From NCBI GenBank assembly GCA_049975265.1, contig JBNGDF010000012.1:1513-65512 (forward strand): a stretch of 64,000 bases of DNA, written 5' to 3'. Every line of letters starts with the position of its first letter. Position 1 is the first letter of the stretch. Position numbers and translations under genes: made by a program. Below the pieces are notes generated by a model, which made no database searches, was not told where the DNA came from, and saw only the letters and a list, made by a program, of their open reading frames with translations. The DNA comes from Fidelibacterota bacterium. Lineage in GTDB: Bacteria; Fidelibacterota; UBA2242. Below are positions 35,604 to 59,697 of the stretch, one piece after another.

Positions 35604-36644
35604 ATGGAGATGAAAACAGGATTCCGACTTTTTGTGGTGCTGCTGCTGAGTCTGGTTGTCTTACACGCCGGCGGCGAACAGCGTTTTGCCGAATTGGGTG
35701 ATTTTAAACTGGAGAGCGGGCAGATAATCAAAGACTGCCGGATCGGTTATCGCATTCTTGGAGAAATGAATGCTGAAAAATCGAACGTTATTCTATATCC
35801 GACCTGGTTTGGTGGCAGCAGCGAGCATGTTGCGAAATTGGTGGGTCCGGGAAAATTGGTGGATAATAGCGAATTATGTGTCATTGTTGTGGATGCCTTG
35901 GGCAACGGGGTTTCGTCGTCACCGTCGAACAGCCGGCGGCAGCGGAACGCCAAATTTCCGGAATTCACGATTCACGACATGGTAGAGAGTCAGTATCGAT
36001 TGCTTACGGAGCATCTGGGGGTCCGGCATCTATATGGCATTATCGGCGGTTCGATGGGCAGTTTTCAGACCTTTGACTGGCTGGTGAGTTACCCAAAATT
36101 TATGGACAAAGCGCTACCTTATGTTTGTTCGCCGGCGCTGAGCTCATTTGATTTACTGAGGCAGCGGCTGGAGCTGGAAATTATCGAGACAGTCCGGGAT
36201 GCCCGGCGACCCGAGCGGGAAATTCAACGGTTGACCAACATTTATACGGAACTGTTTGCCCGGACGCCGGAATATATTGTCAGGCACCATCCCAGAGAGG
36301 AATTTGAAACCTTTTTCGCCGGTTTTGATCGGGAACCATCAGAGCAATTTACATCCTGGAATAAAGCTGCGCAGCTGCGGGCGATGCAACATCACGATAT
36401 TTATCGTCGTTTTCATAATTCGGCTGAAGAGACCGCTGCCGCGATCCATGCGGAAGTTCTGATGATCGTTTCGGCAACGGATCATCTGGTGAATCCGCTG
36501 CCGGCGATGGAATTTGCCCGGCTGCTGGATTGTGAAATCGTTGTGCTGGAAAATGATTGCGGGCATCTGGCGATCGGTTGCGAGATGGAACGCTGTGCCG
36601 CAATTGTCAATACCTTTTTCAAGAAATCGTTGACGAGTGAATGA
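35604..36644 (+). CDS. secreted alpha/beta hydrolase, homoserine O-acetyltransferase (MetX)-like fold
   Basis: N-terminal hydrophobic signal. GIIGGSMGSFQTFDW is a nucleophile elbow resembling MetX GGSMGG. Confidence 0.5.
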   Translation: MEMKTGFRLFVVLLLSLVVLHAGGEQRFAELGDFKLESGQIIKDCRIGYRILGEMNAEKSNVILYPTWFGGSSEHVAKLVGPGKLVDNSELCVIVVDALGNGVSSSPSNSRRQRNAKFPEFTIHDMVESQYRLLTEHLGVRHLYGIIGGSMGSFQTFDWLVSYPKFMDKALPYVCSPALSSFDLLRQRLELEIIETVRDARRPEREIQRLTNIYTELFARTPEYIVRHHPREEFETFFAGFDREPSEQFTSWNKAAQLRAMQHHDIYRRFHNSAEETAAAIHAEVLMIVSATDHLVNPLPAMEFARLLDCEIVVLENDCGHLAIGCEMERCAAIVNTFFKKSLTSE

Positions 36645-40615: not shown

Positions 40616-42388
40616 ATGAGAAAAATGGCAGTGGCGCTTTTAATGGTATTGAATTTTGGTAGTGTTCTTTGGGCGGCGGGAACGGAACCAACAGGCAGTC
40701 CACGGCAGGTATCCACGCGGGAACATCTGCTCTGGATTTGTACGAACAGCTCTTCCTGGGGCGATGACTTTATTCAAACAGCGGACATTGTATTTACACA
40801 GGAAGATTTCGAAAACGGCGGCGCTTTTTATAATGTCGGTGCCGGCTTTTCACCAATCGGCAACAACGGCACCAAATTCACAGGATCGTATGACGGGCAG
40901 GAATTCAGCATCGAGGGATTATTAATAAATCGGACATCTGATTATATCGGGCTGTTCGGCTGGATCAGTGATGCAACTATTCAGAATCTGAGTGTTACCA
41001 GCGTCGATATATCCGGTGGAACCTTTGTCGGCGGGCTGGTTGGTGTCAATACGGTTTCTGCCACAATATCCAATTGTTCCACATCCGGCAGGGTAACCGG
41101 CACCGGTGATTATGTTGGCGGATTGATTGGATATAGCAATGCCATTATTGAAAATTCAAGCAGCGTTTGTCAGGTTATTGGTAATAGTTATATCGGAGGG
41201 CTGGTGGGTAGTAATGACGTGACTGTGAGTCGCTGTTATAGTTGTGGTGAGGTTACTGGAAATCAGCACGCCGGTGGCTTGGTGGGATATAACACATCAA
41301 CCATTGATAACTCTTTTTGTGTTGGAAGTGTAATCCGAGCCAGTGGAAGCACCTCAGAAAGTTTAGGTGATTTCGTTGGGTATAATTATAATGGAGTGGT
41401 GGCATTCTGTTATTCAACGGGTAGTGTCAGTTATAATAGTGCCGAAAATCCAACGGATAAAGGTTTTATCGGCGAGCAGGCTGGATCAGGTAATAGCTAT
41501 GCCAATAATTTCTTCGATAGTACCGCTTCCAACCAGAGCAGCGATGCCGTCGGATCGGCAACTCCCAAAACGACTGTTGAGATGAAAAATGTCAGAACCT
41601 TTACCGATGTGGAATGGAGTTTGGGTTTGTCATTCGCCTGGGACTTTGAAACCAATCCCTATGACGATGAAGCCAATAACAATTATTGGGACCTGGACCT
41701 CGATGGAATCATCAATAACGGCTATCCCTATCTCTCCTGGGAAGATGGCGCGGATGTGTCTCTGCCGGTGGTGTTGGTGAATTTCACTGCGGATCAGAGT
41801 CGTGATGGAGTGGTATTGCGGTGGACGACGGAAAGCGAGATTGAAAACTTGGGTTTCATTATATGTAGAAAGTGCAAAGTGTCTCCAACAGGAGTCCCTG
41901 AGGGGAAAAGTTCAAAATGGGAAGAAATTGCGAGTTATTTGACGGATGCAGCGTTGCAGGGGCAGGGTTCGACGGCGGAAAAACACGATTATCAGTATAT
42001 TGACTTTGCGGTTCAACCGGGAATGACCTATGAATACCGATTAAGCGACGTGGATTTCGGCGGGAAGGTCACCTGGTGCGCCGGGGCAGAGATCAGGATT
42101 AAGGTCGGAGATGCCCCGGTGGCGACAGAATTCGGTTTACAAAAAACCTTTCCCAATCCCTTTAACGCGAACGTGACGCTCTGCTACAACCTTTCCGATA
42201 ACGGTAAGACCAACCTGGCGGTTTACAACCTGCGTGGTCAATTGGTGGCAACCCTTGTCAATGTGGATAAAACGAAAGGTACATATCAGGTGAACTGGCA
42301 GCCGCGGCAGCTGAGTACCGGCATATATATTGTCCGTCTGGAATCGGGTGCCCGAACAACGTACCGGAAGATTGAATATGTAAAATGA
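40616..42388 (+). CDS. secreted GLUG-motif repeat protein with T9SS C-terminal sorting domain
   Basis: Signal peptide. Repeated GGLVG/GGLIGY GLUG-like repeats. A pre-CTD domain (LRWTTESEIENLGFI...YRLSDVDFGGKVTW) is paralogous to the protein at 14495. C-terminal PNPFNANVTLCYNL...YIVRL is a T9SS CTD. Confidence 0.65.
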   Translation: MRKMAVALLMVLNFGSVLWAAGTEPTGSPRQVSTREHLLWICTNSSSWGDDFIQTADIVFTQEDFENGGAFYNVGAGFSPIGNNGTKFTGSYDGQEFSIEGLLINRTSDYIGLFGWISDATIQNLSVTSVDISGGTFVGGLVGVNTVSATISNCSTSGRVTGTGDYVGGLIGYSNAIIENSSSVCQVIGNSYIGGLVGSNDVTVSRCYSCGEVTGNQHAGGLVGYNTSTIDNSFCVGSVIRASGSTSESLGDFVGYNYNGVVAFCYSTGSVSYNSAENPTDKGFIGEQAGSGNSYANNFFDSTASNQSSDAVGSATPKTTVEMKNVRTFTDVEWSLGLSFAWDFETNPYDDEANNNYWDLDLDGIINNGYPYLSWEDGADVSLPVVLVNFTADQSRDGVVLRWTTESEIENLGFIICRKCKVSPTGVPEGKSSKWEEIASYLTDAALQGQGSTAEKHDYQYIDFAVQPGMTYEYRLSDVDFGGKVTWCAGAEIRIKVGDAPVATEFGLQKTFPNPFNANVTLCYNLSDNGKTNLAVYNLRGQLVATLVNVDKTKGTYQVNWQPRQLSTGIYIVRLESGARTTYRKIEYVK

Positions 42389-44982: not shown

Positions 44983-45678
44983 ATGTCCTCTTTTTTAGCG
45001 GAGCTGCAGAAACTGAATCAGAAAGCAAATTTTTTCAGCAGGGAGCGCCGGCTGCTGCTGGCTGTTTCCGGCGGCATTGACAGCCTCTGCATGGCGCAGG
45101 TGCTGGCAGAATACCGCCGCGTGATTAATCCCGGTCTGAGCCTGGAAGCGGCGAATGTGCAGATCCCCCAAACGGCGCTGAAAGATTCTGATATGCAAAT
45201 CTTGCGCGATTTTTTTAAAGAAATGAATATTCCGCTAACGATAATCAATGGAAATGTTGACGATTCACAACCATTCATCTGCTATATCTGCGCCAGGGAA
45301 CGCCGCAAACGGATTTTCCAGCATGCCGCAGAGCGGAAAATCGGATTAGTCGCCCTGGGACACAATCTGGATGATTATCTGGAAACCGCCTTGCTGAATC
45401 TGGTCCACGCCGGACACATGGAGTCATTACAGCCGGTGCAATCCTATTTTAATAATAAAATTACAGTGCTGCGTCCGCTGCTTTCGATTCGTAAAAAGCA
45501 TGTTACGGCTTATGCGAAAGAGCATCAATTCCCAAAATTGACTTCCCAGTGTGCTTATGAATCCGACAACCGGCGTGCGGCAATTCGTACGCTTATGGCT
45601 CAGCTGCAACGCTTAAACCGGGCGTTTATTCCCAATCTGCGCAAGGCGGTGAACCGGTGGAATAAATTAGAGGTTTAA
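44983..45678 (+). CDS. PP-loop ATPase, TtcA/TilS-like tRNA-modification enzyme
   Basis: SGGIDS PP-loop. CYICARERRKRIF resembles the TtcA CxxC...RxRR motif. Confidence 0.5.
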   Translation: MSSFLAELQKLNQKANFFSRERRLLLAVSGGIDSLCMAQVLAEYRRVINPGLSLEAANVQIPQTALKDSDMQILRDFFKEMNIPLTIINGNVDDSQPFICYICARERRKRIFQHAAERKIGLVALGHNLDDYLETALLNLVHAGHMESLQPVQSYFNNKITVLRPLLSIRKKHVTAYAKEHQFPKLTSQCAYESDNRRAAIRTLMAQLQRLNRAFIPNLRKAVNRWNKLEV

Positions 45679-47039
45679 AATTTCGGCGCTTCCACCAGTT
45701 TTAAAAGCTTCATCAGCAGTAATGAGATAATCAGTGCTCCGGCAAATACACCAACGGTTAGAAGAAGACTCCAATTCCACCAGATCGGCGCGTTGATCAG
45801 GACACTATAGCCCAGAATCACCGGAACCATGAAGAGATTCATGATGCCGACCTCCACGGCGACCGGCGATTTGAATTCCGGATCAACGATTCGGAGCAGC
45901 AGCAGTCCGCTGGAGACGGTGCCGGTGACCGTTCCGTAAATGGTTACCGACCGTTCAATGTTGTACGAGAACAGCCGCCGCCCCAGGAAAATCACCATGA
46001 TAGTGGTTGTCAGACCGCCGGTCAGTGCAATCAGCGTCACCGGCAGGATGAATTTCCAGACCACTACCACCTGGATCGCCATAATGGTGGACACAATCAG
46101 GTAATCCACCGAGAACCCGGTAATGCGCCGTTGCAGACCGGAATCCAGCAGATGGTCTATTTTAAGTTTTTTCATTATGAGTTTGACCAGAAAGGCAATC
46201 GCCATCCCGATAAAGAAGAAAAATCCCCAGAGCATTTTTGCCATGTCCGGAGGGAGCAATTTTCCCAGTAGCAGTGTGAAACCGTACGACAGCAGATAGA
46301 CCAGTCCGATGACGGCGGCATGAAATGCCAGGGTTTCAATATTGCCGGAGTGCATGGTGAGATTCCCGGCGGGCTCTTTATCATGATCTTTTGGCACAAT
46401 GCCTTTCAGAAAGTGGCGTGGCAGTGATCCGGGCACCTGTGCCGTAAGCCCCTTGCGGATGCCCCAGTTCGCAATGGGTACTCCGACGAAAAAGGAAAAC
46501 AGAAATCCTAGGGCGGCAAAGGTCAGCCCGATCGTGGCGGCATGTTCGAATCCCACGGTCTCCCAGACTTTGCCGAAGGACAGCGCCTGCCCGGGTCCCT
46601 CCTCAAAGCCCAACGATAGGAGAAAACCGAAAGTCGGGAACAGTTTAAAACCCAGCAGCCCGATTACGATGACGATAAGTCCCCCGATCACCGCTTGCAT
46701 CGAAAAGGAGATGCTCTGAATCACCGCCATCCAGGCGGAGCCTTTCAGATAATCTCTGGCGCGGATGGTGTCCGGCTGATCTTCGTTGCTGCCGGACAGA
46801 CCGACAGAAATAAAGGAAATATTGAAAAAATGATAGGCAAATGTTTCGAGTGCTGAGGCTTCGATCCTAAGAACGCCGCAGCTGATAAAGACCAGCCCGA
46901 GAATGCCACCCAGAAGGCAGCTGGGAATTAGGAAATATTGAAAGAAGTGCAGCTTGTTGCGGAGATAGGCTCCGATCAGCAGCATCACGGATAATGCCCC
47001 GAAGATCAGCATCGTTTCAAATGGAAATGGAATGTTCAT
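45675..47039 (-). CDS. polytopic membrane transporter, GltS-like (paralog of 25114-26520)
   Basis: 454 aa. Shares LGFEEGPGQALSFGKVWE and LLLLRIVDPEFKSPVAVE blocks with the paralog. Confidence 0.4.
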   Translation of the reverse strand: MNIPFPFETMLIFGALSVMLLIGAYLRNKLHFFQYFLIPSCLLGGILGLVFISCGVLRIEASALETFAYHFFNISFISVGLSGSNEDQPDTIRARDYLKGSAWMAVIQSISFSMQAVIGGLIVIVIGLLGFKLFPTFGFLLSLGFEEGPGQALSFGKVWETVGFEHAATIGLTFAALGFLFSFFVGVPIANWGIRKGLTAQVPGSLPRHFLKGIVPKDHDKEPAGNLTMHSGNIETLAFHAAVIGLVYLLSYGFTLLLGKLLPPDMAKMLWGFFFFIGMAIAFLVKLIMKKLKIDHLLDSGLQRRITGFSVDYLIVSTIMAIQVVVVWKFILPVTLIALTGGLTTTIMVIFLGRRLFSYNIERSVTIYGTVTGTVSSGLLLLRIVDPEFKSPVAVEVGIMNLFMVPVILGYSVLINAPIWWNWSLLLTVGVFAGALIISLLLMKLLKLVEAPKF

Positions 47040-47235: not shown

Positions 47236-47277
47236 TTGCATTTTAAAGTGGCGAATGATATAATTGTATAGACAATT
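47236..47277 (+). promoter_or_regulatory. sigma70-like promoter TTGCAT-17-TATAAT overlapped by 16-bp inverted repeat AATTGTATAGACAATT (GntR-type operator)
   Basis: Exact 17-nt spacer. The palindrome arms AATTGT/ACAATT start inside the -10 box. A twin module lies at 50725-50766. Confidence 0.6.
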
Positions 47278-47457: not shown

Positions 47458-48255
47458 ATGAAAATCATTGTACCGATTAAACAGGTTCCGGAAACCAGCA
47501 ATGTCAGGATGGATCCGGAGACCGGAACCATGATCCGGGAGGGGGTCGAGCCGATCGTCAACCCGCTGGATCTCTATGCCATTGAGGCAGCCATTCGGCT
47601 GAAAGAGCACGCCGGGGGTGAAATCATCGCTCTCACCATGGGACCGCCCAGTGCCCGCAAAGCGCTGATGGAAGCAATTGCCATGGGTTGTGATGATGGC
47701 ATTCTGCTCAGTAACAAGAAATTTGCCGGAGCGGATACCTGGTCAACATCATATGTTTTGTCGCAGGCGATTAAAAAAATCGAAAAGTTTGACCTGATCC
47801 TCTGTGGCGAGCGCGCCACCGATGGTGATACCGGACAGGTGGGACCCGGAATCGCCGCCTGGCTGGATATACCCTTTGCAACGTATGTCAGTAGGATTCA
47901 GGAGGTCCGTAACGGCAACCTGTACTGTGAACGGATGATTGAAACGGGGTATGAAGAGTTGGAGGTACAGCTGCCCTGCCTGCTGACTGTGGTCAAGGAG
48001 GTGAATTTTCCGCGCCTGCCGACATTAAAAGGAAAATTGCGTTCGAAAGCGGCGGAGCTGGAAACCTGGGGTCCGGCAGATATTGACGCCCAACCGGATT
48101 TTCTGGGTTTAAAGGGATCGCCGACCCGGGTAGTAAAAATTACCAAGCCGCAGGTGGCACGCCGGGGCAAAATTGTTGCGCCGAAAGATGAAAAGGAGTT
48201 AATGTCAGCGGTGGACGGACTGATTGAATTTTTAAAACAGAAAGAGATTGTCTGA
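47458..48255 (+). CDS. etfB: electron transfer flavoprotein beta subunit
   Basis: MKIIVPIKQVPE..., the characteristic EtfB N-terminus. 265 aa. Confidence 0.85.
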   Translation: MKIIVPIKQVPETSNVRMDPETGTMIREGVEPIVNPLDLYAIEAAIRLKEHAGGEIIALTMGPPSARKALMEAIAMGCDDGILLSNKKFAGADTWSTSYVLSQAIKKIEKFDLILCGERATDGDTGQVGPGIAAWLDIPFATYVSRIQEVRNGNLYCERMIETGYEELEVQLPCLLTVVKEVNFPRLPTLKGKLRSKAAELETWGPADIDAQPDFLGLKGSPTRVVKITKPQVARRGKIVAPKDEKELMSAVDGLIEFLKQKEIV

Positions 48256-49292
48256 TGGATAGCAACGCAGCATATCAACATGTCTGGATTCTGGGTGAGC
48301 AGGAAAGCGGAATTATCCGGCAGGTCTCCTTTGAGCTGCTGAAGCGGGGGCGCGCTTTGGCGGATAAACGCAGGTCACAGCTGGTGGCGGTTATCCTCGG
48401 TGATCGCTTTGAAGACCGTGAGTTGGCGCGCCTGTTTCACTACGGTGCCGACCGGATTATCGTTGTGCAGCGACCGGAGCTACGCTACTTTTTGCCGGAA
48501 CCCTATACCAGGGTTCTGAAGACATTGATTAATAAATACCGCCCGGAAATTCTGATAGCCAGCGCCACGACAACCGGAAGAACAGTAGCGCCGGCGGTGG
48601 CGGTTGTCTGTCATACCGGGCTGACCGCCGACTGTACCGAGTTGGATATCGATCCGGAAACGGGTAATCTGATTCAGACCCGTCCGGCGATCGGGGGCAA
48701 TATTCTGGCGACCATCAAAACGCCGGCACACCGTCCTCAAATGGCAACGGTCCGGCCTCACTCCAACAAACCACTGGAACCGGATGAGAGTCGCCGCGGC
48801 GAAATCATCCGGGAAACGGTGGAAGCAACGAGTCTGCAAAGCCGGGTCAAGCGGCTTGGATTTCGGGAAAACAGCGAAGCCGTGGGCAATATTCAAGACG
48901 CCGAAATCATCATCGCCGGCGGGAAGGGTTTCAAGAAAGATGAAAATTTCCGCATGGTGCGGGAACTGGCGGAGCTGTTTCCCGATGGTGCGGTCGGCGC
49001 AAGCCGGGATGCAGTAGACCGTGGTTGGGTCAGCTACACGCACCAGATCGGGCTGAGCGGGAAGACCGTCAGTCCGCGCTTCTATCTGGCAGTCGGGATA
49101 TCGGGTTCAGTCCAGCATCTGGCGGGGATTAAGACGGCTGAAAATATTGCCGCCATCAATAACGATCCGGAAGCCCAGATTTTTCAGGTGGCGGACTACG
49201 GAATTGTCGCGGATTTATTTGAAGTATTACCACTGATCAAAGAGAAGCTGGCAGCCCTGAATCTGAAACAGGAAGCGGAGGTGAGTGAATGA
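48255..49292 (+). CDS. etfA: electron transfer flavoprotein alpha subunit
   Basis: FAD-binding C-terminal domain (IIAGGKGF...AVGASRDAVDRGW...QIGLSGKTVSP). The start overlaps the etfB stop. Confidence 0.85.
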   Translation: MDSNAAYQHVWILGEQESGIIRQVSFELLKRGRALADKRRSQLVAVILGDRFEDRELARLFHYGADRIIVVQRPELRYFLPEPYTRVLKTLINKYRPEILIASATTTGRTVAPAVAVVCHTGLTADCTELDIDPETGNLIQTRPAIGGNILATIKTPAHRPQMATVRPHSNKPLEPDESRRGEIIRETVEATSLQSRVKRLGFRENSEAVGNIQDAEIIIAGGKGFKKDENFRMVRELAELFPDGAVGASRDAVDRGWVSYTHQIGLSGKTVSPRFYLAVGISGSVQHLAGIKTAENIAAINNDPEAQIFQVADYGIVADLFEVLPLIKEKLAALNLKQEAEVSE

Positions 49293-50713
49293 ATCCGTCC
49301 AGTTATAAGCGTGTTGATTCCGGAATAGTGGAAATGTTAAAAAAAATTGTCGGTCCCCGTTTTGTGCTTTGGGATGAGCCGGATAAAATGGAGCCTTATT
49401 CACATGATGAGGTGGTGGACAAGCGCTACATGCAGATGCCCGAAGTGGTGGTGAAACCGCGGACTGCCCAGGAGGTGGCTCAGGTGATGCAGTTAGCCAG
49501 CCGGGAAAATATACCGGTGACGCCCCGTGGTGCCGGGAGCGGGCTTTCCGGCGGTGCTGTCCCGGTGTACGGTGGAATTTTACTATCTGTGGAGCGCATG
49601 AACAGCATTTTGGAAATTGATAAAGCCAATATGGTGGCGGTTCTTGAGCCGGGTGTGATTACCAATGACCTGAATTTACTGCTGGCGGAAGAGGGGCTCT
49701 TTTTTGCGGGCTACCCCATGAGCGTGGAGAGCTGTTTTATCGGCGGGAATGTGGCGGAAAATGCCGGGGGCGGGCGAGCGGTGAAATACGGTGTCACCGG
49801 ACGCTATATTATCGGACTGGAGGTGGTTACGCCGGAAGGTGAGATCATCCAGCTGGGCGGCAAACGGGTCAAGGATGTGGTGGGTTACGACCTGATTCAT
49901 CTGATGGTAGGCTCCGAAGGGACGCTGGGGATTTTTACCAAAATTTTTATTAAACTGTTGCCGCTGCCGTCAAAGCGGGTAGACCTGCTGGTCCTGTTTA
50001 AAGATATCGCCAGTGCGGTGGCGCTGGTGCCGAAGATCATCGCTTTCGGCAAAATCATTCCCACCGCTGTGGAATTTATGGATAAAACCGCCGTTGAACT
50101 CGCCTGCCGCTATTTAAATGAACAGCTCTATTCGCAGGACGTGGGAGCCATGCTGCTGATCGAGCTGGACGGCAACGACGAGCCCGGGCTGGAGCGGGAA
50201 TATGAAGTGATCGGTAAAATGTGCGAAGAAAACGGCGCCATTGAGGTCTATGTAGCCGATAACGCCACGACTCAGGAGCGGGTCTGGGCGGTGCGGCGCA
50301 ATGTACCGGAGGGAATCCAGACCTTTTATCCCGTTAAAAGTTCCGAGGATTTGGTGGTGCCCATTGCCAACCTGCCGGAAATATTGCCGCAGATCACTGC
50401 CATCGCAAAAAAGCACGATGTCATCATCCCCTGCTTTGGTCATGCGGGCGACGGGAACATACATACCACGATTGTTAAGAAACCGGAAATGTCAATGGAC
50501 AGGTGGCATGAAGTTCAGGAGACGGTCCGGGTGGCGCTGTATCAGATGGTGCTTGCCAAAGGGGGCACGATCAGCGGTGAGCACGGTATTGGTCACAAGC
50601 GGAAAAAATATCTTTCCATGGCACTCGATCCGGTAACAATCCGGCTGATGAAGCGAATCAAGCAGGCTTTTGATCCGGATCATATTCTGAATCCGGGGAA
50701 AATGTTTGAATAG
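49289..50713 (+). CDS. FAD-linked oxidase, GlcD/D-lactate dehydrogenase family (LctD-like)
   Basis: FAD_binding_4 fold (PRGAGSGLSGGAVP) plus a C-terminal FAD-oxidase domain. Overlaps the etfA stop by 4 nt. The order etfB-etfA-oxidase matches the LctBCD lactate dehydrogenase/ETF complex. Confidence 0.7.
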   Translation: MNPSSYKRVDSGIVEMLKKIVGPRFVLWDEPDKMEPYSHDEVVDKRYMQMPEVVVKPRTAQEVAQVMQLASRENIPVTPRGAGSGLSGGAVPVYGGILLSVERMNSILEIDKANMVAVLEPGVITNDLNLLLAEEGLFFAGYPMSVESCFIGGNVAENAGGGRAVKYGVTGRYIIGLEVVTPEGEIIQLGGKRVKDVVGYDLIHLMVGSEGTLGIFTKIFIKLLPLPSKRVDLLVLFKDIASAVALVPKIIAFGKIIPTAVEFMDKTAVELACRYLNEQLYSQDVGAMLLIELDGNDEPGLEREYEVIGKMCEENGAIEVYVADNATTQERVWAVRRNVPEGIQTFYPVKSSEDLVVPIANLPEILPQITAIAKKHDVIIPCFGHAGDGNIHTTIVKKPEMSMDRWHEVQETVRVALYQMVLAKGGTISGEHGIGHKRKKYLSMALDPVTIRLMKRIKQAFDPDHILNPGKMFE

Positions 50714-50724
50714 CGAAAAAAAAC

Positions 50725-50766
50725 TTGCAGTTTTGAAACTGTTTAAGTATAATTGTATATACAATT
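50725..50766 (+). promoter_or_regulatory. sigma70-like promoter TTGCAG-17-TATAAT overlapped by perfect 16-bp palindrome AATTGTATATACAATT
   Basis: Same architecture as the 47236 module. Immediately upstream of the regulator gene, consistent with autoregulation. Confidence 0.6.
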
Positions 50767-50788: not shown

Positions 50789-51886
50789 ATGATCATCGAT
50801 CGAAACAGCCCGGTACCGCAGTATTTTCAGTTGCAAACCTGGCTACGGGAGCAGATTGAGCAGAGGGTTTTTAAACCGGGCGATAAGATACCGACGGAAG
50901 AGGAGCTGGTCCATATCACCGGTCTGGCGCGGGCAACGATTCGTCAGGCGATCAGCAATCTGGTGAATATGGGCTATCTGACCCGCAAACGCCGTCTGGG
51001 AACTTTTGTCACCCGGCGCTCAAACAGGACCCAGCCTAAAAACATCATCGGTGTTTTGGTGCCCGACATCCGGAGCGGCTATACACCGGAATTAGCCCGG
51101 GGTGTGGAAGATGCCGCCGCCAACAATAAACTGAGTACAATTTTGTGTAACACCGATGACCTGTTTATCAAGGCGGCTTTTCATGCGGAGCGTCTGCTTG
51201 AGAGCAATATCGGCGGGGTGATCTTTGTCCCCACCGCCGCTTCCGACGAAAAGAATCTGCAGATTATTGACAAATTTCGCAAGCGGAATATCCCCGTGGT
51301 GCTGGCGGACCGCATCATTCCGAACACCGATGTGGACTATGTGACAACCGATAATTTTCACGGCGGTTACCAGCTGACCAACTATTTAATCAAAAAAGGG
51401 CACCGCAGGATCGGCATCACGCTCAGCACGCTTTTCAGCACCGAGCGGCTGCGTTATGAAGGGTACCGCAAAGCCCTGGAAGAGGCGGGAATTTCACCCG
51501 AATCCGGCTGGATCAGACTGCATGACGGACCCTTTACAGAAAAGCATTATCAGCAGGTCGCCAAAGATCTGTTGAGCCATGACCGTAAAATCAGTGCCAT
51601 GTTCGCTGGGCATGACCGGATTGCCTATGTTGTTTATTCGGTTGCCCAGAAATTAGGCATAAAAATTCCGGTGGATCTGTCGATCGTAGGCTATGATGAT
51701 TTACATTCCACCTGCTCCCATCTGATTTCCCTGACGACCATGCATCAACCGATTTATGAGATGGGGCAGGAGAGTCTCGGAATTCTGGTTTCCAGGATGA
51801 ATGGTGACAACGGGGGGCTCAAGCGACTGGAGTTAAAATCCAATTTGGTGGAACGCAACTCGGTCGTACGCTTTAAGAATTCCTGA
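50789..51886 (+). CDS. transcriptional regulator, GntR-family HTH fused to LacI/PBP1-type sugar-binding domain (AraR-like)
   Basis: N-terminal PGDKIPTEEELVHITGLARATIRQAISNL winged helix. The C-terminal 290 aa have a periplasmic-binding fold (GVLVPDIRSGYTPE..., VGYDD). Confidence 0.75.
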   Translation: MIIDRNSPVPQYFQLQTWLREQIEQRVFKPGDKIPTEEELVHITGLARATIRQAISNLVNMGYLTRKRRLGTFVTRRSNRTQPKNIIGVLVPDIRSGYTPELARGVEDAAANNKLSTILCNTDDLFIKAAFHAERLLESNIGGVIFVPTAASDEKNLQIIDKFRKRNIPVVLADRIIPNTDVDYVTTDNFHGGYQLTNYLIKKGHRRIGITLSTLFSTERLRYEGYRKALEEAGISPESGWIRLHDGPFTEKHYQQVAKDLLSHDRKISAMFAGHDRIAYVVYSVAQKLGIKIPVDLSIVGYDDLHSTCSHLISLTTMHQPIYEMGQESLGILVSRMNGDNGGLKRLELKSNLVERNSVVRFKNS

Positions 51887-51916: not shown

Positions 51917-52930
51917 ATGAAAAAAATGATCAACATCGGATTGATTGGCACCGGACGGTTGGGGAGTATGTATGCCGAATTTCTGGTTCAGCATGTCCCG
52001 CAGGCAAATCTAATTGCGGTGGCGGATTTGATTCCGGAGCGTGCACAAAAGATAGCGGAACAGTACGATATTCCGAAATGGTACGACAGTCATCAAGGGG
52101 TCAATCGCGATCCGCAGGTAGATGCGGTGGTGATTACGGCGACCACCGGCAACCACAAGGAGATTGTCATTGATGCCGCCCGGGAAGGCAAACCGGTTTT
52201 CTGTGAAAAGCCGATGACGCTGAATCTTGACGATGCCCGGGAGATGAAGCGGGCGGTTATAACGGCGGGTGTTTTTTATCAGCAGGGTTATATGCGCCGG
52301 TTTGATAAGGGATTTTCGGCGGTAAAGCGGAAAATCGAAGAGGGTGTCATCGGAACGCCGGTGGTGTTTCGCGGATCATCCCGGGACCCCTTTCTGCCGG
52401 AGTTAGATTATCTTTTACCTGAGAACAGCGGGGGTCAGATTCTGGATATGGCGATTCATGATTTCGATATTGCCCGCTGGTATATGGGTGATATTCGGTC
52501 GGTCTATACGATTGGCGGCGTGCTGGCATTTCCCGAAGTCAAGTCTACCGGTGATACCGATAATGTGGTCATGGCATTTACTTTTCAGTCGGGCGCACTG
52601 GGCGAAGTTGATATCAGTCGCAACGGCGTCTATGGCTATGATATCCGGGCGGAAGTACTGGGAACCAAAGGGACCCTAAAGGCGGGTTATCTGCGAGATA
52701 CGCCTATTCTGGTAATGAACAAAGAGGGCGTAACCCACGACGTCGTACCCTATTTCCCGGAACGCTTTTGTGAAGCCTATGTCGCCCAATTGAATAACTA
52801 TCTGAATAATCTTCGTAATGCAACCGACCCGCTGATCACCATTGACGACGGCATCAGTGGTTTGCAGGTCGCTGTCGCTGCGACAGACTCCCTGAAAAAG
52901 GAAACCGCCGTTAACGTTGCCGATTATTAG
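51917..52930 (+). CDS. Gfo/Idh/MocA-family oxidoreductase (inositol 2-dehydrogenase-like)
   Basis: N-terminal Rossmann IGLIGTGRLG and an EKP motif (FCEKPM). Confidence 0.7.
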   Translation: MKKMINIGLIGTGRLGSMYAEFLVQHVPQANLIAVADLIPERAQKIAEQYDIPKWYDSHQGVNRDPQVDAVVITATTGNHKEIVIDAAREGKPVFCEKPMTLNLDDAREMKRAVITAGVFYQQGYMRRFDKGFSAVKRKIEEGVIGTPVVFRGSSRDPFLPELDYLLPENSGGQILDMAIHDFDIARWYMGDIRSVYTIGGVLAFPEVKSTGDTDNVVMAFTFQSGALGEVDISRNGVYGYDIRAEVLGTKGTLKAGYLRDTPILVMNKEGVTHDVVPYFPERFCEAYVAQLNNYLNNLRNATDPLITIDDGISGLQVAVAATDSLKKETAVNVADY

Positions 52931-52997
52931 AATTTTTTTTGAATATTATTGTCTATTCAATTATATGAATGTATCAATTAAAAAGAAAGGAAGATAG

Positions 52998-54185
52998 ATG
53001 AGAACCGTGACTCTTTTTGCCGACTGGGACCCTAAACCGGAGTTCAAGCTGGGTAGTAAGGATATCGAGGGTAAATTAACCTATCTTGGGAGCAAAGTCT
53101 GGCGGCATCCCCACGTGGAGATTGTGGAGAAAGAGATTCCGAAACCGGGTCCTTCGCAAGTGCTGATTGAAGTCCGGGCTTGCGGGATTTGTGGGAGCGA
53201 CGTGCATATGCTGCAGACGTCGTCGGACGGCTACATTTTTTATCCGGGACTGACTGCTTTTCCGGCGACGCTGGGGCATGAGTTTTCCGGAAAGGTGATT
53301 CAGGCGGGACCCCAAGCGATCAACAAGCGAACCGGTCTGCCCTACGAGGTGGGCGAGGCGGTCTGTTCTGAGGAGATGATGTGGTGTTCCTACTGTCGTC
53401 CCTGCGCCGACGGATTTCCCAATCATTGTGAGCATTTGCAGGAGATCGGTTTTTCCTGCGATGGTGCCTATGCCAAATACATCGCCGTGGATGCCCGCTA
53501 TCTCTGGAGCATTGAAGATTTACGACCAATTTACGGTGAGGAAAAAATGTATGAGCTGGGCAGCCTGGTGGAGCCGACGTCGGTGGCGTATAATGCGGTC
53601 ATCGAACGGGGCGGCGGCATTCGACCAGGCGATAATGTGGTGATCATGGGCAGCGGTCCGGTGGGCATCGCTGCCTGTGCTGTTCTAAGTCGAGCCGGTG
53701 CGGCGAGAGTGATCATTTCAGAACCCTCCCAATCCCGGCGGGATATGGCGATTGCCATGGGTGCCACACACGGCATTGATCCGACCAGAGTGAATGCCGC
53801 CGATGCTATCCTAAATATTACCAATGGTGAGGGCGCCAAGCTGATTCTCGAAGCCACCGGTCTGCCCAGCGTGGTCTGGCCGGATGTGGAGAAGATTATC
53901 TGGGAAGGCAAAACTCTGAACACGACGGTGGTCATCGTAGCCCGGGCGGACGATAAAATTCCTATGAACGGTGAAGTGTTCCAGGTCCGCCGGGCAAGTG
54001 TGGTTGGCGCCCAGGGGCATTCGGGACACGGAACCTTTCCACGGGTGATCAGCTCCATGGCAAGTGGCATGGACGTATCGGGATTGATCACCAAGCGCAT
54101 CAAGCTGGAAGAGGTACCGGAAAATCTGGTGCTGTTGCAAACCAATCGGGAAGAGGTGAAAATTACCGTTTTCCCTGAAGAGTAA
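52998..54185 (+). CDS. zinc-dependent alcohol/polyol dehydrogenase (MDR family)
   Basis: CGICGSDVHM, GHEFSG, and Rossmann GSGPVG. Confidence 0.75.
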   Translation: MRTVTLFADWDPKPEFKLGSKDIEGKLTYLGSKVWRHPHVEIVEKEIPKPGPSQVLIEVRACGICGSDVHMLQTSSDGYIFYPGLTAFPATLGHEFSGKVIQAGPQAINKRTGLPYEVGEAVCSEEMMWCSYCRPCADGFPNHCEHLQEIGFSCDGAYAKYIAVDARYLWSIEDLRPIYGEEKMYELGSLVEPTSVAYNAVIERGGGIRPGDNVVIMGSGPVGIAACAVLSRAGAARVIISEPSQSRRDMAIAMGATHGIDPTRVNAADAILNITNGEGAKLILEATGLPSVVWPDVEKIIWEGKTLNTTVVIVARADDKIPMNGEVFQVRRASVVGAQGHSGHGTFPRVISSMASGMDVSGLITKRIKLEEVPENLVLLQTNREEVKITVFPEE

Positions 54186-54218: not shown

Positions 54219-55313
54219 ATGGAAGGCTGGCTGAAAACAGATCGAACCGACCTGAGTTTTGAGGACACGTCGGTCGGACGGCTGAAGAAGAAAATCTGGG
54301 AAGCTTCGGAAGATGAAATTTCCGAAATTCTGGAAAACTACGGAATTCCAACACCCTCGGAACTGGCGAAACCGGGTACCTATGTGCAGACAACCATTCG
54401 ACAGAAAGTGGTGGAAAACCGCAAGAAAAATGATATTGTCTTTGTGCCTATTGGCTGTACCGAGCTGCATGGTCGGCACACGGTCACTGCTTTGGACTCA
54501 TTTATGGTGACCCAGATTCTGGAGGGTGTCCGCCGGGATTCGGTGAAAAAGGGCACGCCGGTGAATCTGGTCTGGAATCCGCTGAATTATGGCGGTCATC
54601 CCCATCACCATATCGGCATGCCGGGCACGATTCACATTGAGGATGAAGTGCTGAAACGGGTGCTGATTGACGTCATGGTTGGTCTCTGGAATGACGGATT
54701 CCGTAAAATCATTCTGGTAAACAATCATGGTCACTCCTGGCTTCTGGAGGCGGCGATTCAGGAATTGCAGAAAACCTGGAATCTGCCGGGCATTTTCCGC
54801 ACGATTGACTGGCATCGCGCCGTACGGGAGTTTTTCCGCACCAGAGATAGGGGCGGCGATTGGGAGGATAATTTTTTCCATGCCGATGAAGCCGAAACCT
54901 CGGTAATGCTGCTGTTGGCGCCGGAATATGTCGAAATGGCGCTGGCGGAAGAGACCAGGGTAGAGGGCTATCTGCCCGATGGTCACATGGATAAAGCGGT
55001 AGATCCCTTTGCTAGACCCTGCCGCTGGTCGGAGGGACAGGGGCACGGCCCGATGGAGATCAATTCGATTCCCGAAGGGGTGGTAGGTCGTCCCACGATC
55101 GCCGAAGCCAGAAAAGCCCGGCGCACCATCGCTGCAATTTTGTCCTATCTGACCCTGTTATGGGAAGAGATTCTGGAAGCCTATCCCGCCGGCACATTTC
55201 CGCCGATTGAAAAGACCACCATGCGAACGGAAAAGGAGATGGAACCGTACCTGAAGGAGCCTTTTACTGAGGGTTGGCGTCCAATCTATGCCATTCGCAA
55301 GATGGGATTGTAA
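54219..55313 (+). CDS. creatininase-family amidohydrolase
   Basis: PIGCTELHGRH, LVNNHGHSW and HADEAETSVML match the three metal-binding blocks of PF02633. Confidence 0.65.
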   Translation: MEGWLKTDRTDLSFEDTSVGRLKKKIWEASEDEISEILENYGIPTPSELAKPGTYVQTTIRQKVVENRKKNDIVFVPIGCTELHGRHTVTALDSFMVTQILEGVRRDSVKKGTPVNLVWNPLNYGGHPHHHIGMPGTIHIEDEVLKRVLIDVMVGLWNDGFRKIILVNNHGHSWLLEAAIQELQKTWNLPGIFRTIDWHRAVREFFRTRDRGGDWEDNFFHADEAETSVMLLLAPEYVEMALAEETRVEGYLPDGHMDKAVDPFARPCRWSEGQGHGPMEINSIPEGVVGRPTIAEARKARRTIAAILSYLTLLWEEILEAYPAGTFPPIEKTTMRTEKEMEPYLKEPFTEGWRPIYAIRKMGL

Positions 55314-55393: not shown

Positions 55394-56386
55394 ATGAAGA
55401 GACAAAACATTCAATATTTATTGCTCAGTGCATTGATTCTGGCGCTTGCCATCGGTTGTCAACCCGAAATACCCGGAACAGGCGAAGATGTTATTCCCCA
55501 ACACGCCCAGTCTCTGGCGGAGCTGGAGGAGCCTTTTACATTTTTGATTGCCGGGGATCTGGGTCGCAACGGATATTATTATCAGAAGCCCGTGGCGGAA
55601 ATGATGGGGGCGGTTGTCGCCATCGTGGATGCGGAGTTTGTCGCAGCTGTGGGCGATGTCCACCATTTTCTGGGTGTCCGGTCGATTCATGATCCGCTCT
55701 GGGAGACCAACTTCGAGTGGATTTACAAACATCCCGAATTGATGACACACTGGTACCCGGTATTGGGCAATCACGAATATGAGGGCAATACCCAGGCTGT
55801 TATCGACTATTCCGGAATTAGCCGCCGCTAGGAAATGTCTGCCCGTTATTATGAAAAGACGTGGCAGGTAGCCGGTAATACCGAAGTTCTGCTGCTTTTT
55901 ATCGATACGGTGCCGCTAATTGACAAATATCGTAATAATCCGGAGGAGTACCGCGATGCCTGTACACAGTCCATGGAGCGGCAGCTGACCTGGATCGATT
56001 CCACTCTTGGCGCCTCCGGAGCCAAATGGAAAATCGTGCTGGGGCATCACCCCATTTATGCCGGTACATATAAAGATGATATTGAACGAACCGATTTGCA
56101 GAAACGCCTTCAGCCACTGCTTGACAAACATCATGTGGATTTTGTGGTTAGTGGGCATATTCACAATTTTCAGCATATCCGGGTGAAAGGCTCCGACATT
56201 GATTATTTGATCAACACTTCAGGTTCGCAGGCTCGTGAAGCTGATGAAAGACACCGGACGGAAGGACAACTGTTTACAAGTTCGGATTCCGGCTTCTCCC
56301 TTTGTACGGTGAAAGAGGATGAGTTGATTATTACCTTTGTTAATAAAAAAGGGGAAATCATCTATCAGTATGCCCGAAGCAAATAA
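55394..56386 (+). pseudogene. purple-acid-phosphatase (ACP5-type) metallophosphoesterase interrupted by in-frame TAG at 55829-55831
   Basis: ORFs 55394-55831 and 55835-56386 are in the same frame and together match ACP5 end to end (GDLG..., GDVHH, GNHEY / GHHPIY, GHIHNF). The TAG falls where ACP5 has a conserved Trp (ISKRW vs ISRR*), consistent with TGG to TAG. Confidence 0.6.
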
Positions 56387-56430
56387 TCCACGGAATGGTT
56401 TTTCCGGTTCCGGTAATTAGGAATGGAACA

Positions 56431-57243
56431 ATGAAGCTCAGTATAGTAATCTCGACCCAGCCGGCGACATTCAATGCCCTGGCTTATAAAGGCAAAGTTG
56501 CAGAGAACATTGAAAAGGTGCGAAAACTGGGTTACGATGGCGTCGAACTGGCGGTTCGTGATCCGCGGCTGCTGGATTTGGCGGTGGTGAAGGCATTGAC
56601 CATTGATACCGGATTTCCGGTGTCCGCCCTTGGAACCGGACAGGCTTTCGGCGAAGAAGGGCTGTCATTTTCCAGTCCCGATCGGACAATTCGCAGGAAA
56701 GCCATTGAAAGGATTAAATCGCACATTGATGTCGCCGCGCAGTTAAACGCAATTGTGATTATTGGATTGATTCGCGGCATTGTGAAGCCGGGAGATGATC
56801 CGGAGCAAGCCGAGGCATGGATTATTGAGGCGCTCGATACGTGTGCCGCTGTTAATCCGGATGTCAAATTGGTCATTGAGCCCTGTAATCGTTATGAAGC
56901 CAATACGGTCAACACGGTTGGCGAGGGCATGGCTCTGGTGGACAAACTGGGACGAGCAAATGTCGGTCTGCTGCTGGATACCTTTCATATGAATATCGAA
57001 GAGCCGGATATGCTGGAAAGTATTGAGAATGCCGGTCAGCGGTTATTTCACTTCCACATCGCCGATTCCAACCGCTGGTATCCGGGCGCCGGTCATATTG
57101 ATTTTCAGGCGGTTTGCTGGAAGCTGTCCCAAATCGGTTATGCGGGCTTTCTGTCCGCTGAGATTCTGCCCTTACCCGATGCCGATACCGCCGCCGAAAT
57201 GACCATTCATACAATGCGAAATTTGGAAAACATAAAAAAATAA
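56431..57243 (+). CDS. sugar phosphate isomerase/epimerase (xylose-isomerase-like TIM barrel)
   Basis: AP endonuclease 2 / IolE-IolI fold: LGYDGVELAV..., HIADSNRWYPGAGHIDF. Confidence 0.7.
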   Translation: MKLSIVISTQPATFNALAYKGKVAENIEKVRKLGYDGVELAVRDPRLLDLAVVKALTIDTGFPVSALGTGQAFGEEGLSFSSPDRTIRRKAIERIKSHIDVAAQLNAIVIIGLIRGIVKPGDDPEQAEAWIIEALDTCAAVNPDVKLVIEPCNRYEANTVNTVGEGMALVDKLGRANVGLLLDTFHMNIEEPDMLESIENAGQRLFHFHIADSNRWYPGAGHIDFQAVCWKLSQIGYAGFLSAEILPLPDADTAAEMTIHTMRNLENIKK

Positions 57244-57272: not shown

Positions 57273-58316
57273 ATGGAAATGATGAATGCGCTTGTTTTTA
57301 AGAAAGTCGGACAGATTGACTTTGAATGGATTCCAATTCCGAAAGTGACCGAGCCGAACCAGGTTCTGGTCAAAGTCGCCGCCTGTGGGATATGCGGCTC
57401 CGATGTTAAAATTCTCGAGGGTAAACATGCTTACCGGGAAAATACGGTACTGGGACATGAGTTTTGCGGAACGGTGGTTGAGGTCGGCAATAGAGTCACG
57501 GCTGTCAAAAAGGGCGACTGGATTGCCCTGGATAACAACTCCCGCTGCGGACTGTGTGAATTTTGCCGGATGGGTATGAGCAGTCAGTGTGTGGAATTAA
57601 AGAATCGCACCCTGGGAGTTTTCAGGAACGGCGGTTTTGCGGAGTACACCCTGGCAACCGAGGACGTCTGTTTCAAAATTCCCGATACCATTGATGAAAT
57701 TCTCGGGACTCAGGTGGAAACCCTTGGCACCGTGCTGAACGGAATGAATACCGTCCAGATGCAGTGTTACGATTCGGTGCTGGTGCTGGGATGTGGTCCG
57801 ATTGGTTACCTTTTTACCGCCATTGCCAAGAATGTTGCCGCCGAAGTTGCCGTAACGGAAATTGATCCCTTCCGGTTCAAAGTTGTGGAAAAGTTCGGAG
57901 TACCTGTTTTTAATCCCGATGAGTGTGATCTGGAAGCTGAGGTCATCAAACTCACCAATGGCAAGAAGTTTGATATTGTCATAGATGCGGTGGGGACCCA
58001 ATTGGAGAATGCCCTGAAATATGTCACACCCGGCGGAAAAATTCTGGCATTCGGGATGGACAGCAGCTGTAAAGCGACGATTGATCCCTATATCGTTACC
58101 CGGAATGCGATTAAGATTCTGGGAACCTACATCGGGCAGAATACCATTTTGCCGGCGATTAAGCTCTATCGAACCCATAAGCTGGAAATGGACAATTTTT
58201 TCACTGAAACACTGCCTCTGAGGGATGGTCCGGGTGCGTTTAGAAAGCTCGGTCTGGATTTAAAAACGCTGCAACACCTACCCAAACGGGCGATGAAGAT
58301 TGTACTGAAGCCGTGA
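57273..58316 (+). CDS. zinc-dependent alcohol/polyol dehydrogenase (MDR family)
   Basis: CGICGSDVKIL, GHEFCGTV, and the structural-Zn cysteines CGLCEFC. Confidence 0.75.
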   Translation: MEMMNALVFKKVGQIDFEWIPIPKVTEPNQVLVKVAACGICGSDVKILEGKHAYRENTVLGHEFCGTVVEVGNRVTAVKKGDWIALDNNSRCGLCEFCRMGMSSQCVELKNRTLGVFRNGGFAEYTLATEDVCFKIPDTIDEILGTQVETLGTVLNGMNTVQMQCYDSVLVLGCGPIGYLFTAIAKNVAAEVAVTEIDPFRFKVVEKFGVPVFNPDECDLEAEVIKLTNGKKFDIVIDAVGTQLENALKYVTPGGKILAFGMDSSCKATIDPYIVTRNAIKILGTYIGQNTILPAIKLYRTHKLEMDNFFTETLPLRDGPGAFRKLGLDLKTLQHLPKRAMKIVLKP

Positions 58317-58344: not shown

Positions 58345-59697
58345 ATGAATAAAATATTACGATTTTTCGCGACCGGTAAAGATAAACCGCTGATTCAGGA
58401 TCAGGCAAAAGTCGACCGACTGTACAGGCGATACCGCTTGTCGGTTATGCTGGCGATCTCGGTGGGGTATGGTCTGGCGTATACCTTGCGATTGGCATTG
58501 AATATGGTCAAGAAGCCGATTCTGGATGCGGGAATTTTTACCCCCACCGACTTGGGGAATATCGGTTCGGCGCTTCTCTATACTTATGCCATCGGTAAAT
58601 TTACCAACGGATTTTTAGCCGACCATGCCAATGTCAAACGCTTTTTTGCGTTCGGGGTATTGATGTCAGCCCTTGTCAATATTGCGATGGGTTCTTCAGC
58701 GATTCTCTGGCTTTGGATCATATTGTGGGGGTTGAACGGCTGGTTTCAGTCTTTCGGTGCGCCCACGGGTGCGGTCACGCTTTCCAACTGGTTCAGTAAA
58801 TCGGAACGGGGACGTTTCTATGGAATCTGGAGTACCGGTCACAATATCGGTGAGGGCTTGACCTTTGTCGTGACGTCGGCGGTCGTCTCCTATTGGGGCT
58901 GGCGGGCTGGATTCATTGTTCCGGGAGTGTTTTGCATATTGCTGTCCGGACTGATTTATCTGGCGCTGCAGGACAAACCCCGCACTCTGGGATTACCCCT
59001 GGTAGCTGACTGGAAAAAGGATTACAGTGCTCCGCCGGATCTTGAGAAAAATAAAACCGAGCTGACCTCCAAAGCGCAGTTGCAGGTTCTGAAAACTCCG
59101 GCGATCTGGGTTTTGGGTTTCGCCAGCGCCTTTGTTTACATGACCCGCTACGCCATTAACAGCTGGGGCGTGCTCTATCTCCAGGAAGCCAAAGGCTATT
59201 CGCTGATGGAGACGGGCGCGATTCTCGGTTTAAATACGGTTGCCGGTATTTTCGGCTGTATTGTGTATGGTTTCATTTCCGACAAACTGTTCAAAGCGCG
59301 GCGTCCGCCGGTGACTCTGATTTACGGGATCATCGAGCTGACAGCGCTGTTTATCATCTTTTTCAGTGCTCCAAATCAGCCTATTCTGGTGACGGCGGCA
59401 TTTGTCTGCTACGGTTTTACCATGAGTGGTCTGCTGGCTTCACTGGGAGGCTTGTTCGCCATTGATATTGCGCCGAAAAAAGCCGCCGGCGCTGCGATGG
59501 GTTTTATCGGTATTTTCAGCTATATCGGTGCCGGTATCCAGGATCAGATCAGTGGTCTGCTGATTGAGAAGGGGTGCCGGATTGTGGATGGAGCCCTGAC
59601 CTACGATTTTTCGAAGGTGATTATGTACTGGATCGGTTCATCCTTCTTATCAATGATTCTGGCTGCGATACTTTGGAAAGCTAAAACCAGCGATTAG
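58345..59697 (+). CDS. MFS transporter, organophosphate:phosphate antiporter (GlpT/UhpT-like) family
   Basis: 12 TM. N-terminal YRRYRLSVMLAISVGYGLAYTLRLAL...GFLADH pattern as in GlpT/UhpT. Confidence 0.6.
   Translation: MNKILRFFATGKDKPLIQDQAKVDRLYRRYRLSVMLAISVGYGLAYTLRLALNMVKKPILDAGIFTPTDLGNIGSALLYTYAIGKFTNGFLADHANVKRFFAFGVLMSALVNIAMGSSAILWLWIILWGLNGWFQSFGAPTGAVTLSNWFSKSERGRFYGIWSTGHNIGEGLTFVVTSAVVSYWGWRAGFIVPGVFCILLSGLIYLALQDKPRTLGLPLVADWKKDYSAPPDLEKNKTELTSKAQLQVLKTPAIWVLGFASAFVYMTRYAINSWGVLYLQEAKGYSLMETGAILGLNTVAGIFGCIVYGFISDKLFKARRPPVTLIYGIIELTALFIIFFSAPNQPILVTAAFVCYGFTMSGLLASLGGLFAIDIAPKKAAGAAMGFIGIFSYIGAGIQDQISGLLIEKGCRIVDGALTYDFSKVIMYWIGSSFLSMILAAILWKAKTSD

Follow-up and report, generated by a model that had tools for sequence, protein, structure and literature searches.

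Two predicted promoters in a 64,000-nucleotide stretch of contig JBNGDF010000012.1 (assembly GCA_049975265.1) of a Fidelibacterota bacterium, the whole of which is here called the window, each carry a 16-bp palindrome that overlaps the -10 element. One promoter precedes the gene for a 365-amino-acid (aa) regulator of the GntR type and the inositol (iol) genes behind it; the other precedes an etfB-etfA-lctD-like cluster for an electron transfer flavoprotein (Etf) and a FAD-linked dehydrogenase. The palindromes are probably operators for the adjacent 365-aa protein, acting as a repressor that controls both the regulator/iol genes and the etf cluster, a reading to which we assign a probability of about 0.8. 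Support for it comes from the conservation of the promoter-operator modules, the synteny of the genes concerned, sites at further linked genes, a motif of the HutC class, the likeness of the protein to AraR and NagR, and the fact that its winged helix is the only one of the GntR type in the window.

The etfB promoter consists of a -35 hexamer TTGCAT (47236-47241), a 17-nucleotide (nt) spacer (47242-47258) and a -10 hexamer TATAAT (47259-47264), all read directly in the sequence, and its operator O1, AATTGTATAGACAATT, occupies 47262-47277, leaving 180 nt to the etfB ATG at 47458. The promoter of the regulator/iol operon, likewise read directly, has TTGCAG (50725-50730), a 17-nt spacer and TATAAT (50748-50753); its operator O2, the perfect palindrome AATTGTATATACAATT, occupies 50751-50766, leaving 22 nt to the ATG of the regulator at 50789. 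A first-pass annotation of this DNA had placed two such modules at 47236-47277 and 50725-50766, each with a 16-bp inverted repeat that begins with the last three bases of TATAAT and one of them 180 nt upstream of etfB, and in coordinates, overlap and distance the sequence is as it described. With a weight matrix O1 scores 29.8 bits and O2 27.6 bits. A weaker, candidate operator O3 (TATTGTCTATTCAATT, 52947-52962, 22.7 bits), absent from that annotation, lies in the iolG-iolM spacer with a -10-like TATTAT in register and without a clear -35. Matches to AATTGTATNNACAATT with at most two mismatches number six in the window, counted by strand, as against 0.58 expected (0 of 100 shuffles reach six), and the 20-nt weight matrix finds three window sites of at least 16 bits as against 0.01 expected from 200 shuffles; chance is therefore excluded. 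One match with two mismatches, at 36602-36617, is not a site: it is part of a coding region, and its matrix score is below 8 bits.

Conservation of the module was followed in 79 loci (L001-L079) that encode regulator homologues in species-representative genomes, taken as 20-kb stretches. The closest homologue, at 88% identity, is that of a Neomarinimicrobiota genome bin (L001), and homologues at 60-70% identity are found in Marinimicrobia, KSB1, Ignavibacteria/Melioribacteraceae, Calditrichia and others. In 73 of the 79 loci the start codon of the regulator is preceded, at a distance of no more than 60 nt, by a site that scores 16 bits or more, and this retention across several phyla argues for the autoregulation that had been proposed from the module before the regulator gene. 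When 71 distinct upstream sequences are aligned by their operators, the consensus is aaAaaa..cTTGaca-N17-TAtaaTTGTaTAgACAAat, with an uninformative spacer. The orthologous -35 mostly starts with TTG and is TTGACA in 30/71 of these promoters, the -10 is TATAAT in 32/71, and TTG at the -35 is combined with at least five of six consensus bases at the -10 in 42/71. Functional elements that are kept around a spacer free to vary are the classic phylogenetic footprint of a promoter and an operator that overlap, and the -35 positions in the window are validated because the orthologous promoters have TTGACA at exactly that place. The 45 nt upstream of the regulator-proximal operators of L001-L079 also document canonical TTGACA-N17-TATAAT promoters with an upstream A-tract in members of the FCB group outside the Bacteroidia.

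Sites of at least 16 bits are not confined to regulator promoters. In the window and the loci together (1.17 Mb) there are 108 of them as against 1.3 expected from dinucleotide shuffles, and the 35-39 that are independent of the matrix lie almost all upstream of functionally linked genes. Sites are found upstream of iolM in the window and in six loci (L002, L007, L053, L057, L065 and L079), where they have the form ATTGTMTATTCAAT, and the same 20-mer of this type lies ~330 nt after iolG in L006. Others stand upstream of an operon of a Zn-dehydrogenase and a transporter (L033, L034 and L050) and upstream of divergent genes for ~950-aa proteins (L017, L037, L044, L046, L056, L072 and L073). Divergent operons for a TonB-dependent receptor and a beta-propeller phytase, each with its own operator site, are present in L017 (5491-9573, minus strand) and L072 (5716-9858, minus strand). 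The regulator gene itself is syntenic with iolM, iolN and iolO in most of the 79 loci, and in many with iolG as well.

The class of the operator is indicated by its core. TTGTMTAKACAA agrees with the HutC-class consensus GTMTAKAC, and the weight-matrix counts give a core TTGT-M-TA-K-ACAA in which G and T are invariant, M is A or C (54/46), TA is found in 96/102, K is G or T and AC is again invariant; this is the HutC-subfamily consensus NyGTMTAKACNy (PMC4494728), to which both palindromes conform. The earlier assignment of the palindromes to the GntR operator class is thus borne out and can be narrowed to operators with a HutC-type GTMTAKAC core (PMC4494728). At its centre the box has TATA or TAGA, where the AraR box ATTTGTACGTACAAAT has ACGT. 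Many of the loci L001-L079 have TTGTAT immediately 5' of the operator (TTGTATAATTGTATAGACAA), which both window modules lack; it could be an extra half-site, or simply the TG that precedes a -10. Perfect matches to the 18-mer are found in metagenomic sequence from many unrelated contexts. Among the matches listed by a metagenome scan for ATAATTGTMTAKACAATT, which returned at least 120 stretches, only three of ~130 stood before regulator homologues (L131, L145 and L156); the remainder lay in unrelated contexts and added no regulon members, and at that scale the motif alone is not specific.

The predicted DNA-binding protein (50789-51886, plus strand) has a GntR winged helix at residues 17-74 (PF00392, 54.7 bits against a cut-off of 27), followed by an effector domain of the LacI type, resembling periplasmic binding proteins, at about residues 86-360 (Peripla_BP_1, 87.8 bits; Peripla_BP_3, 91.2 bits). 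These Pfam matches agree with the first-pass description of the protein as a GntR/PBP1-type regulator. A winged helix combined with a GalR/LacI-homologous C-terminal domain is what sets the minor AraR subfamily apart among GntR proteins (PMC4494728; PMC1950556), and the 365-aa protein has this architecture. No UTRA (chorismate-lyase-like) domain is reported by Pfam in the protein, whose C-terminal part is of the LacI type, and it thus does not have the effector domain of HutC regulators. Among solved structures the effector domain is closest to RbsR, CcpA and PurR (E 1e-35 to 1e-30) and the AraR C-terminal domain (3tb6) ranks 32nd (E 6e-16); the winged helix matches NagR/YvoA at E 3e-14 and the AraR DNA-binding domain at E 5e-9. 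An orthologue of AraR is rejected on these grounds, since NagR and RbsR/CcpA/PurR match better, the context is inositol and not arabinose, and the box centre differs; the fusion of a GntR winged helix to a LacI-type domain may have arisen separately from AraR. The alignment of the winged helix to that of NagR is ungapped with identical numbering, and of the two arginines by which NagR reads the GG of TGGT, Arg38 and Arg48 (PMC4333415), Arg48 is kept and Arg38 is replaced by Glu. To judge by homology, this change fits a TTGT half-site. No second GntR winged helix is encoded within the 64-kb window, and paralogues at 45% identity (L075-L077) are without the motif.

Behind the regulator on the plus strand lies an apparent operon of inositol and phosphate-ester genes. 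It begins with an IolG-like inositol 2-dehydrogenase (51917-52930; TIGR04380, 332 bits, slightly below the cut-off of 355), followed by the scyllo-inosose 3-dehydrogenase IolM (52998-54185; NF041097, 493 bits, cut-off 450), the 3-dehydro-scyllo-inosose hydrolase IolN (54219-55313; NF041098, 314 bits, cut-off 245), a secreted metallophosphoesterase with a lipoprotein-type signal (55394-56386; Pfam Metallophos on both halves) and the 5-keto-L-gluconate epimerase IolO (56395-57243; NF041099, 360 bits, cut-off 300). There follow a Zn-dependent alcohol dehydrogenase that is a paralogue of IolM (57273-58316; NF041097, 168 bits, below cut-off), an MFS transporter resembling organophosphate:phosphate antiporters of the UhpC/GlpT/PgtP type (58345-59697; NCBIfam subfamilies at 260-302 bits, below cut-offs), a TM0415 homologue of the PfkB fold (59716-60597; solved structures 1vk4, E 7e-39, and 5ysp, E 3e-38) and, as last gene, a second metallophosphoesterase (60594-61487; Pfam Metallophos, 34 bits), with a terminator-like hairpin at 61460-61472. 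TM0415 is the PPi-dependent myo-inositol kinase of the Thermotoga maritima inositol operon TM0411-TM0416 (PMC5931981). The IolM, IolN and IolO equivalogs are present together with a kinase that by structure match is of the TM0415 type, and on these assignments the downstream catabolic genes are a Thermotoga-type inositol pathway plus phosphate-ester functions. An in-frame TAG at 55829-55831 breaks the first metallophosphoesterase (..SRR-stop-EMS.. as against ..SRRWEMT.. in L001) and is a pseudogene, strain-level nonsense mutation or sequencing error; selenocysteine or other recoding was considered and rejected, the stop being TAG and the L001 codon TGG (Trp). Because sites stand upstream of iol genes and of TonB-receptor/phytase genes, the predicted regulon is read as one for inositol utilization that very probably also covers utilization of phytate or inositol phosphates. 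The TonB-receptor/phytase operons with sites, for their part, point to phytate as the substrate of the regulon in the environment.

The cluster under O1 consists of three contiguous, overlapping genes on the plus strand: etfB, for the Etf beta subunit (47458-48255; Pfam ETF, 154 bits; NCBIfam below equivalog cut-offs), etfA, for the alpha subunit (48255-49292; Pfam ETF and ETF_alpha), and an LctD-like FAD-linked D-2-hydroxyacid dehydrogenase of the GlcD family (49289-50713; Pfam FAD_binding_4 and FAD-oxidase_C), i.e. an LctD-type dehydrogenase together with etfBA. The best solved structure for the dehydrogenase is Acetobacterium woodii LctD (7qh2_C, E 3e-105, over the full length), and the best for EtfA are bifurcating Etfs (CarE, 7koe, 4kpu, 5ol2 and LctC), so that the earlier description of the cluster as LctBCD-like holds at the level of structure. 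EtfA lacks the N-terminal [4Fe-4S] ferredoxin domain that marks the LctC type, its alignment beginning at residue 67-70 of CarE/LctC and its length being 345 aa as against 418 for LctC. Anaerolineae and Caldanaerobacter have proteins 63-65% identical to the dehydrogenase, which belongs to a widespread and highly conserved family.

The O1 module is kept in five related genomes (L001, L002, L004, L005 and L064), all with TTGC at the same -35 position, and the proposed link of the regulator to the etfBA-oxidase cluster is upheld by this conservation as one specific to this lineage. An O1-type site precedes etfB in the window, in L001 and in L005, and in L004 and L064 it stands before an LctD-like gene alone. 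A 20-mer identical to that of O1 is found in L001 before etfB and in L002 before an operon in which etfB, etfA and the lctD-like (glcD) gene follow a sugar ABC transporter. In L005 the etfB-etfA-lctD genes flank the regulator with both operators present and no iol genes following. At etf-glcD clusters away from the regulator (L200-L203) no operator is found, the best score being 9 bits, and the etf link is therefore specific to the lineage and not general. The simplest reading would be that a lactate-type dehydrogenase was recruited into the regulon in this Neomarinimicrobiota lineage only. Divergent from etfB is a Glt_symporter-like transporter gene (45675-47039, minus strand; Pfam PF03616, 31.6 bits); O1 is 220 nt from its start codon in the shared intergenic region, a layout repeated in L001, and this gene may belong to the regulon. 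A second Glt_symporter-like paralogue, 34% identical to the first, is encoded at 25147-26385 on the plus strand.

Dehydrogenases of the GlcD family recur near iol genes outside this lineage. Matches to the GlcD query lie downstream of IolO in L008, L013, L025, L034 and L045, mostly of Ignavibacteria/Melioribacteraceae, with the regulator in the same cluster; in L008 (18899-21079) and L034 (15362-18220) the protein is a ~950-aa fusion of GlcD-type FAD domains with 4Fe-4S and CCG domains. A sugar ABC transporter stands between IolO and the GlcD fusion in L008, which parallels the ABC-etfB-etfA-lctD operon of L002. The recurrence of two unrelated GlcD forms in iol clusters suggests a real role for D-2-hydroxyacid oxidation in the pathway. 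That the GlcD-family D-2-hydroxyacid dehydrogenase is a working part of the inositol/phytate pathway, and not merely a neighbouring lactate enzyme, is a tentative proposal that we regard as possible but doubtful; if it were true, there would be an oxidative step or branch downstream of IolN/IolO that is so far undescribed. In another lineage (L041, 11120-13097) a distant etfB-etfA pair (48% identity), for which no dehydrogenase was identified, lies directly 3' of a regulator homologue and before iol genes.

A mechanism may be proposed in which the regulator binds as a dimer with one winged helix per TTGT(A/C)T half-site. Each operator starts within the -10 and covers the predicted transcription start (~47271 and ~50760), and bound repressor would thus exclude RNA polymerase; steric repression appears the likeliest mechanism because of this overlap and because AraR and NagR are repressors released by effectors. 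A small molecule bound in the LacI-type domain would lower the affinity for DNA; the likeliest candidates are myo-inositol, inositol phosphates and early intermediates of the pathway. Since the regulator is the first gene of its operon, O2 would combine negative autoregulation with induction of the pathway, and it probably controls the whole 11-gene operon with the IolG-like, IolM, IolN and IolO enzymes, the TM0415-like kinase, two phosphoesterases, the Zn-dehydrogenase and the organophosphate transporter. O3 would be a weaker internal site before iolM and may serve as a weak internal promoter or as an auxiliary site. O1 would place the etfB-etfA-lctD-like cluster under the same repressor, an extension that appears peculiar to this Neomarinimicrobiota lineage. 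The regulon predicted by the first-pass annotation, i.e. an LctBCD-like operon, the regulator and its downstream catabolic genes, is supported by these comparisons of sequence, with its catabolic part refined to the inositol pathway and a third site added.

Several observations weigh against repression of both promoters by the adjacent protein. The -35 hexamers in the window, described earlier as consensus-like, agree with TTGACA at only 3/6 positions, and neither module is called by a generic promoter scan; the other two elements of a sigma-70-type promoter stand as had been claimed, with a perfect TATAAT and an exact spacer of 17 nt within the range of 16-18. About 69 of the 108 matrix sites were used to train the matrix and hence are not independent, which leaves ~35-39 to be set against the 1.3 expected, and the loci come from related genomes, so that locus counts overstate the number of independent events. 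In L006 and L007 an etfB-etfA-glcD cluster lies beside the regulator with no site detectable upstream of etfB in the sequence available, and the reading does not explain why a lactate-dehydrogenase-like complex should answer to inositol. In addition, neither inositol nor inositol phosphate elicited a response from T. maritima IolR in vitro (PMC3750489), and the effector of this type of pathway is therefore uncertain in general.

Other explanations of the palindromes were considered. It could be that they are bound by another regulator encoded elsewhere in the genome, e.g. a HutC-family NagR or DasR, to which the gene next to them is only incidentally adjacent. This would accord with GTMTAKAC being a generic HutC-class consensus and with the exact copies of the 18-mer in so many unrelated metagenomic contexts; however, the site accompanies the regulator gene in 73/79 loci of several phyla at a fixed distance from the start codon, the window holds no other GntR winged helix, and the further sites are at inositol/phytate genes and not at amino-sugar genes, all of which make an outside regulator improbable. 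We consider it equally improbable that the 365-aa protein itself works at the palindromes as an activator or dual regulator and not as a simple repressor. Consensus TTGACA and TATAAT are present in most orthologous promoters, which therefore need no activator, the operator lies across both the -10 and the start site in a position to hinder polymerase, and the nearest characterized relatives, AraR and NagR, are repressors; the weak (3/6) -35 boxes of the window, typical of promoters that require activation, are what speaks for such a role.

Two further alternatives deny the palindrome any function as an operator, and both are very unlikely. The modules might be copies of a recently duplicated or mobile promoter cassette in which the palindrome has no regulatory role, inasmuch as both have TTGCA at the -35, a spacer of the same length, the same -10, the palindrome and an A-tract upstream. 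Apart from the -35, -10 and operator, however, the modules are dissimilar when compared with each other, and because spacers and flanks differ there was no recent duplication; moreover genomes with regulators of only 50-70% identity keep the elements but not the spacers, and the flanks read show no features of repeat elements. The palindrome might instead act in RNA, forming a 5' hairpin or contributing to a leader element within the 180 nt before etfB. The length of that leader is in keeping with this, as is a start inside the palindrome, of which the transcript would then hold a part at most; the stem, however, would be almost all A-U pairs. No Rfam family is found at gathering score in the leader, which folds no better than shuffles (z = 0.06) and is not kept in L004, L005 and L064, where the operator is kept. 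Binding by the adjacent regulator as a repressor is thus preferred to all of these.

Operator recognition of this kind has known counterparts. Bacillus subtilis AraR has the same chimeric construction of a GntR winged helix and a LacI/GalR-type effector domain and binds a 16-bp palindrome, ATTTGTACGTACAAAT, to repress its own gene (PMC1950556). The geometry of that box is the same as that of AATTGTATATACAATT, the operator of its own gene included, and AraR is a sugar-inducible repressor (PMC1950556); the systems differ in that AraR controls arabinose genes and the regulator here inositol/phytate genes, in the phyla of their hosts, and in that both domains are here closer to other proteins. NagR/YvoA and DasR, GntR/HutC proteins with dre operators, have in common with the present sites the GTMTAKAC core and the 16-bp palindromic layout, whereas they have a UTRA/chorismate-lyase effector fold, Arg38 and TGGT where a LacI-type domain, Glu38 and TTGT are found here. 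The T. maritima operon TM0411-TM0416 encodes the same set of enzymes, IolM, IolN, IolO and the TM0415-type kinase together with IolG, for which an IolG-like protein stands here (PMC5931981, PMC3750489), but its regulator IolR belongs to the ROK family (PMC3750489), so that the GntR/LacI-type chimera here represents a non-orthologous replacement. Relative to that operon, phosphoesterases and an organophosphate transporter are added here, and TonB-receptor/phytase genes belong to the predicted regulon in relatives. A. woodii LctBCD (PDB 7QH2) has the same order etfB-etfA-dehydrogenase, with LctD as best structure match and an EtfA here that resembles bifurcating Etfs; unlike LctC, which has an N-terminal ferredoxin domain, the EtfA here is without one, and its cluster bears an operator of the predicted inositol regulon.

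No published description of this system was found in the literature on inositol regulators, on IolM/IolN/IolO, on phytase/TonB/GntR or on inositol in Marinimicrobia, subscription-only papers lying outside that coverage. Most likely the mechanism is ordinary, that of an inducible and autoregulated repressor like AraR or NagR, and it is the regulon itself that is undescribed. The window also encodes, at 40616-42388 on the plus strand, a protein with a type IX secretion C-terminal sorting domain, which agrees with an origin in the FCB group.

To our knowledge almost nothing is known of transcriptional regulation in Marinimicrobia/Fidelibacterota, KSB1, Ignavibacteria and Calditrichia, which are uncultured or little studied. 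For these groups the analysis offers a candidate regulator, motif and regulon for the use of inositol and probably of phytate, and the alignment of promoters indicates that these Bacteroidota relatives use canonical TTGACA-N17-TATAAT promoters. The motif can be used to find more members of the regulon in metagenome-assembled genomes. The Etf-linked LctD-like dehydrogenase, unexpected under the same operator, provides a lead to a possible missing step of the pathway.

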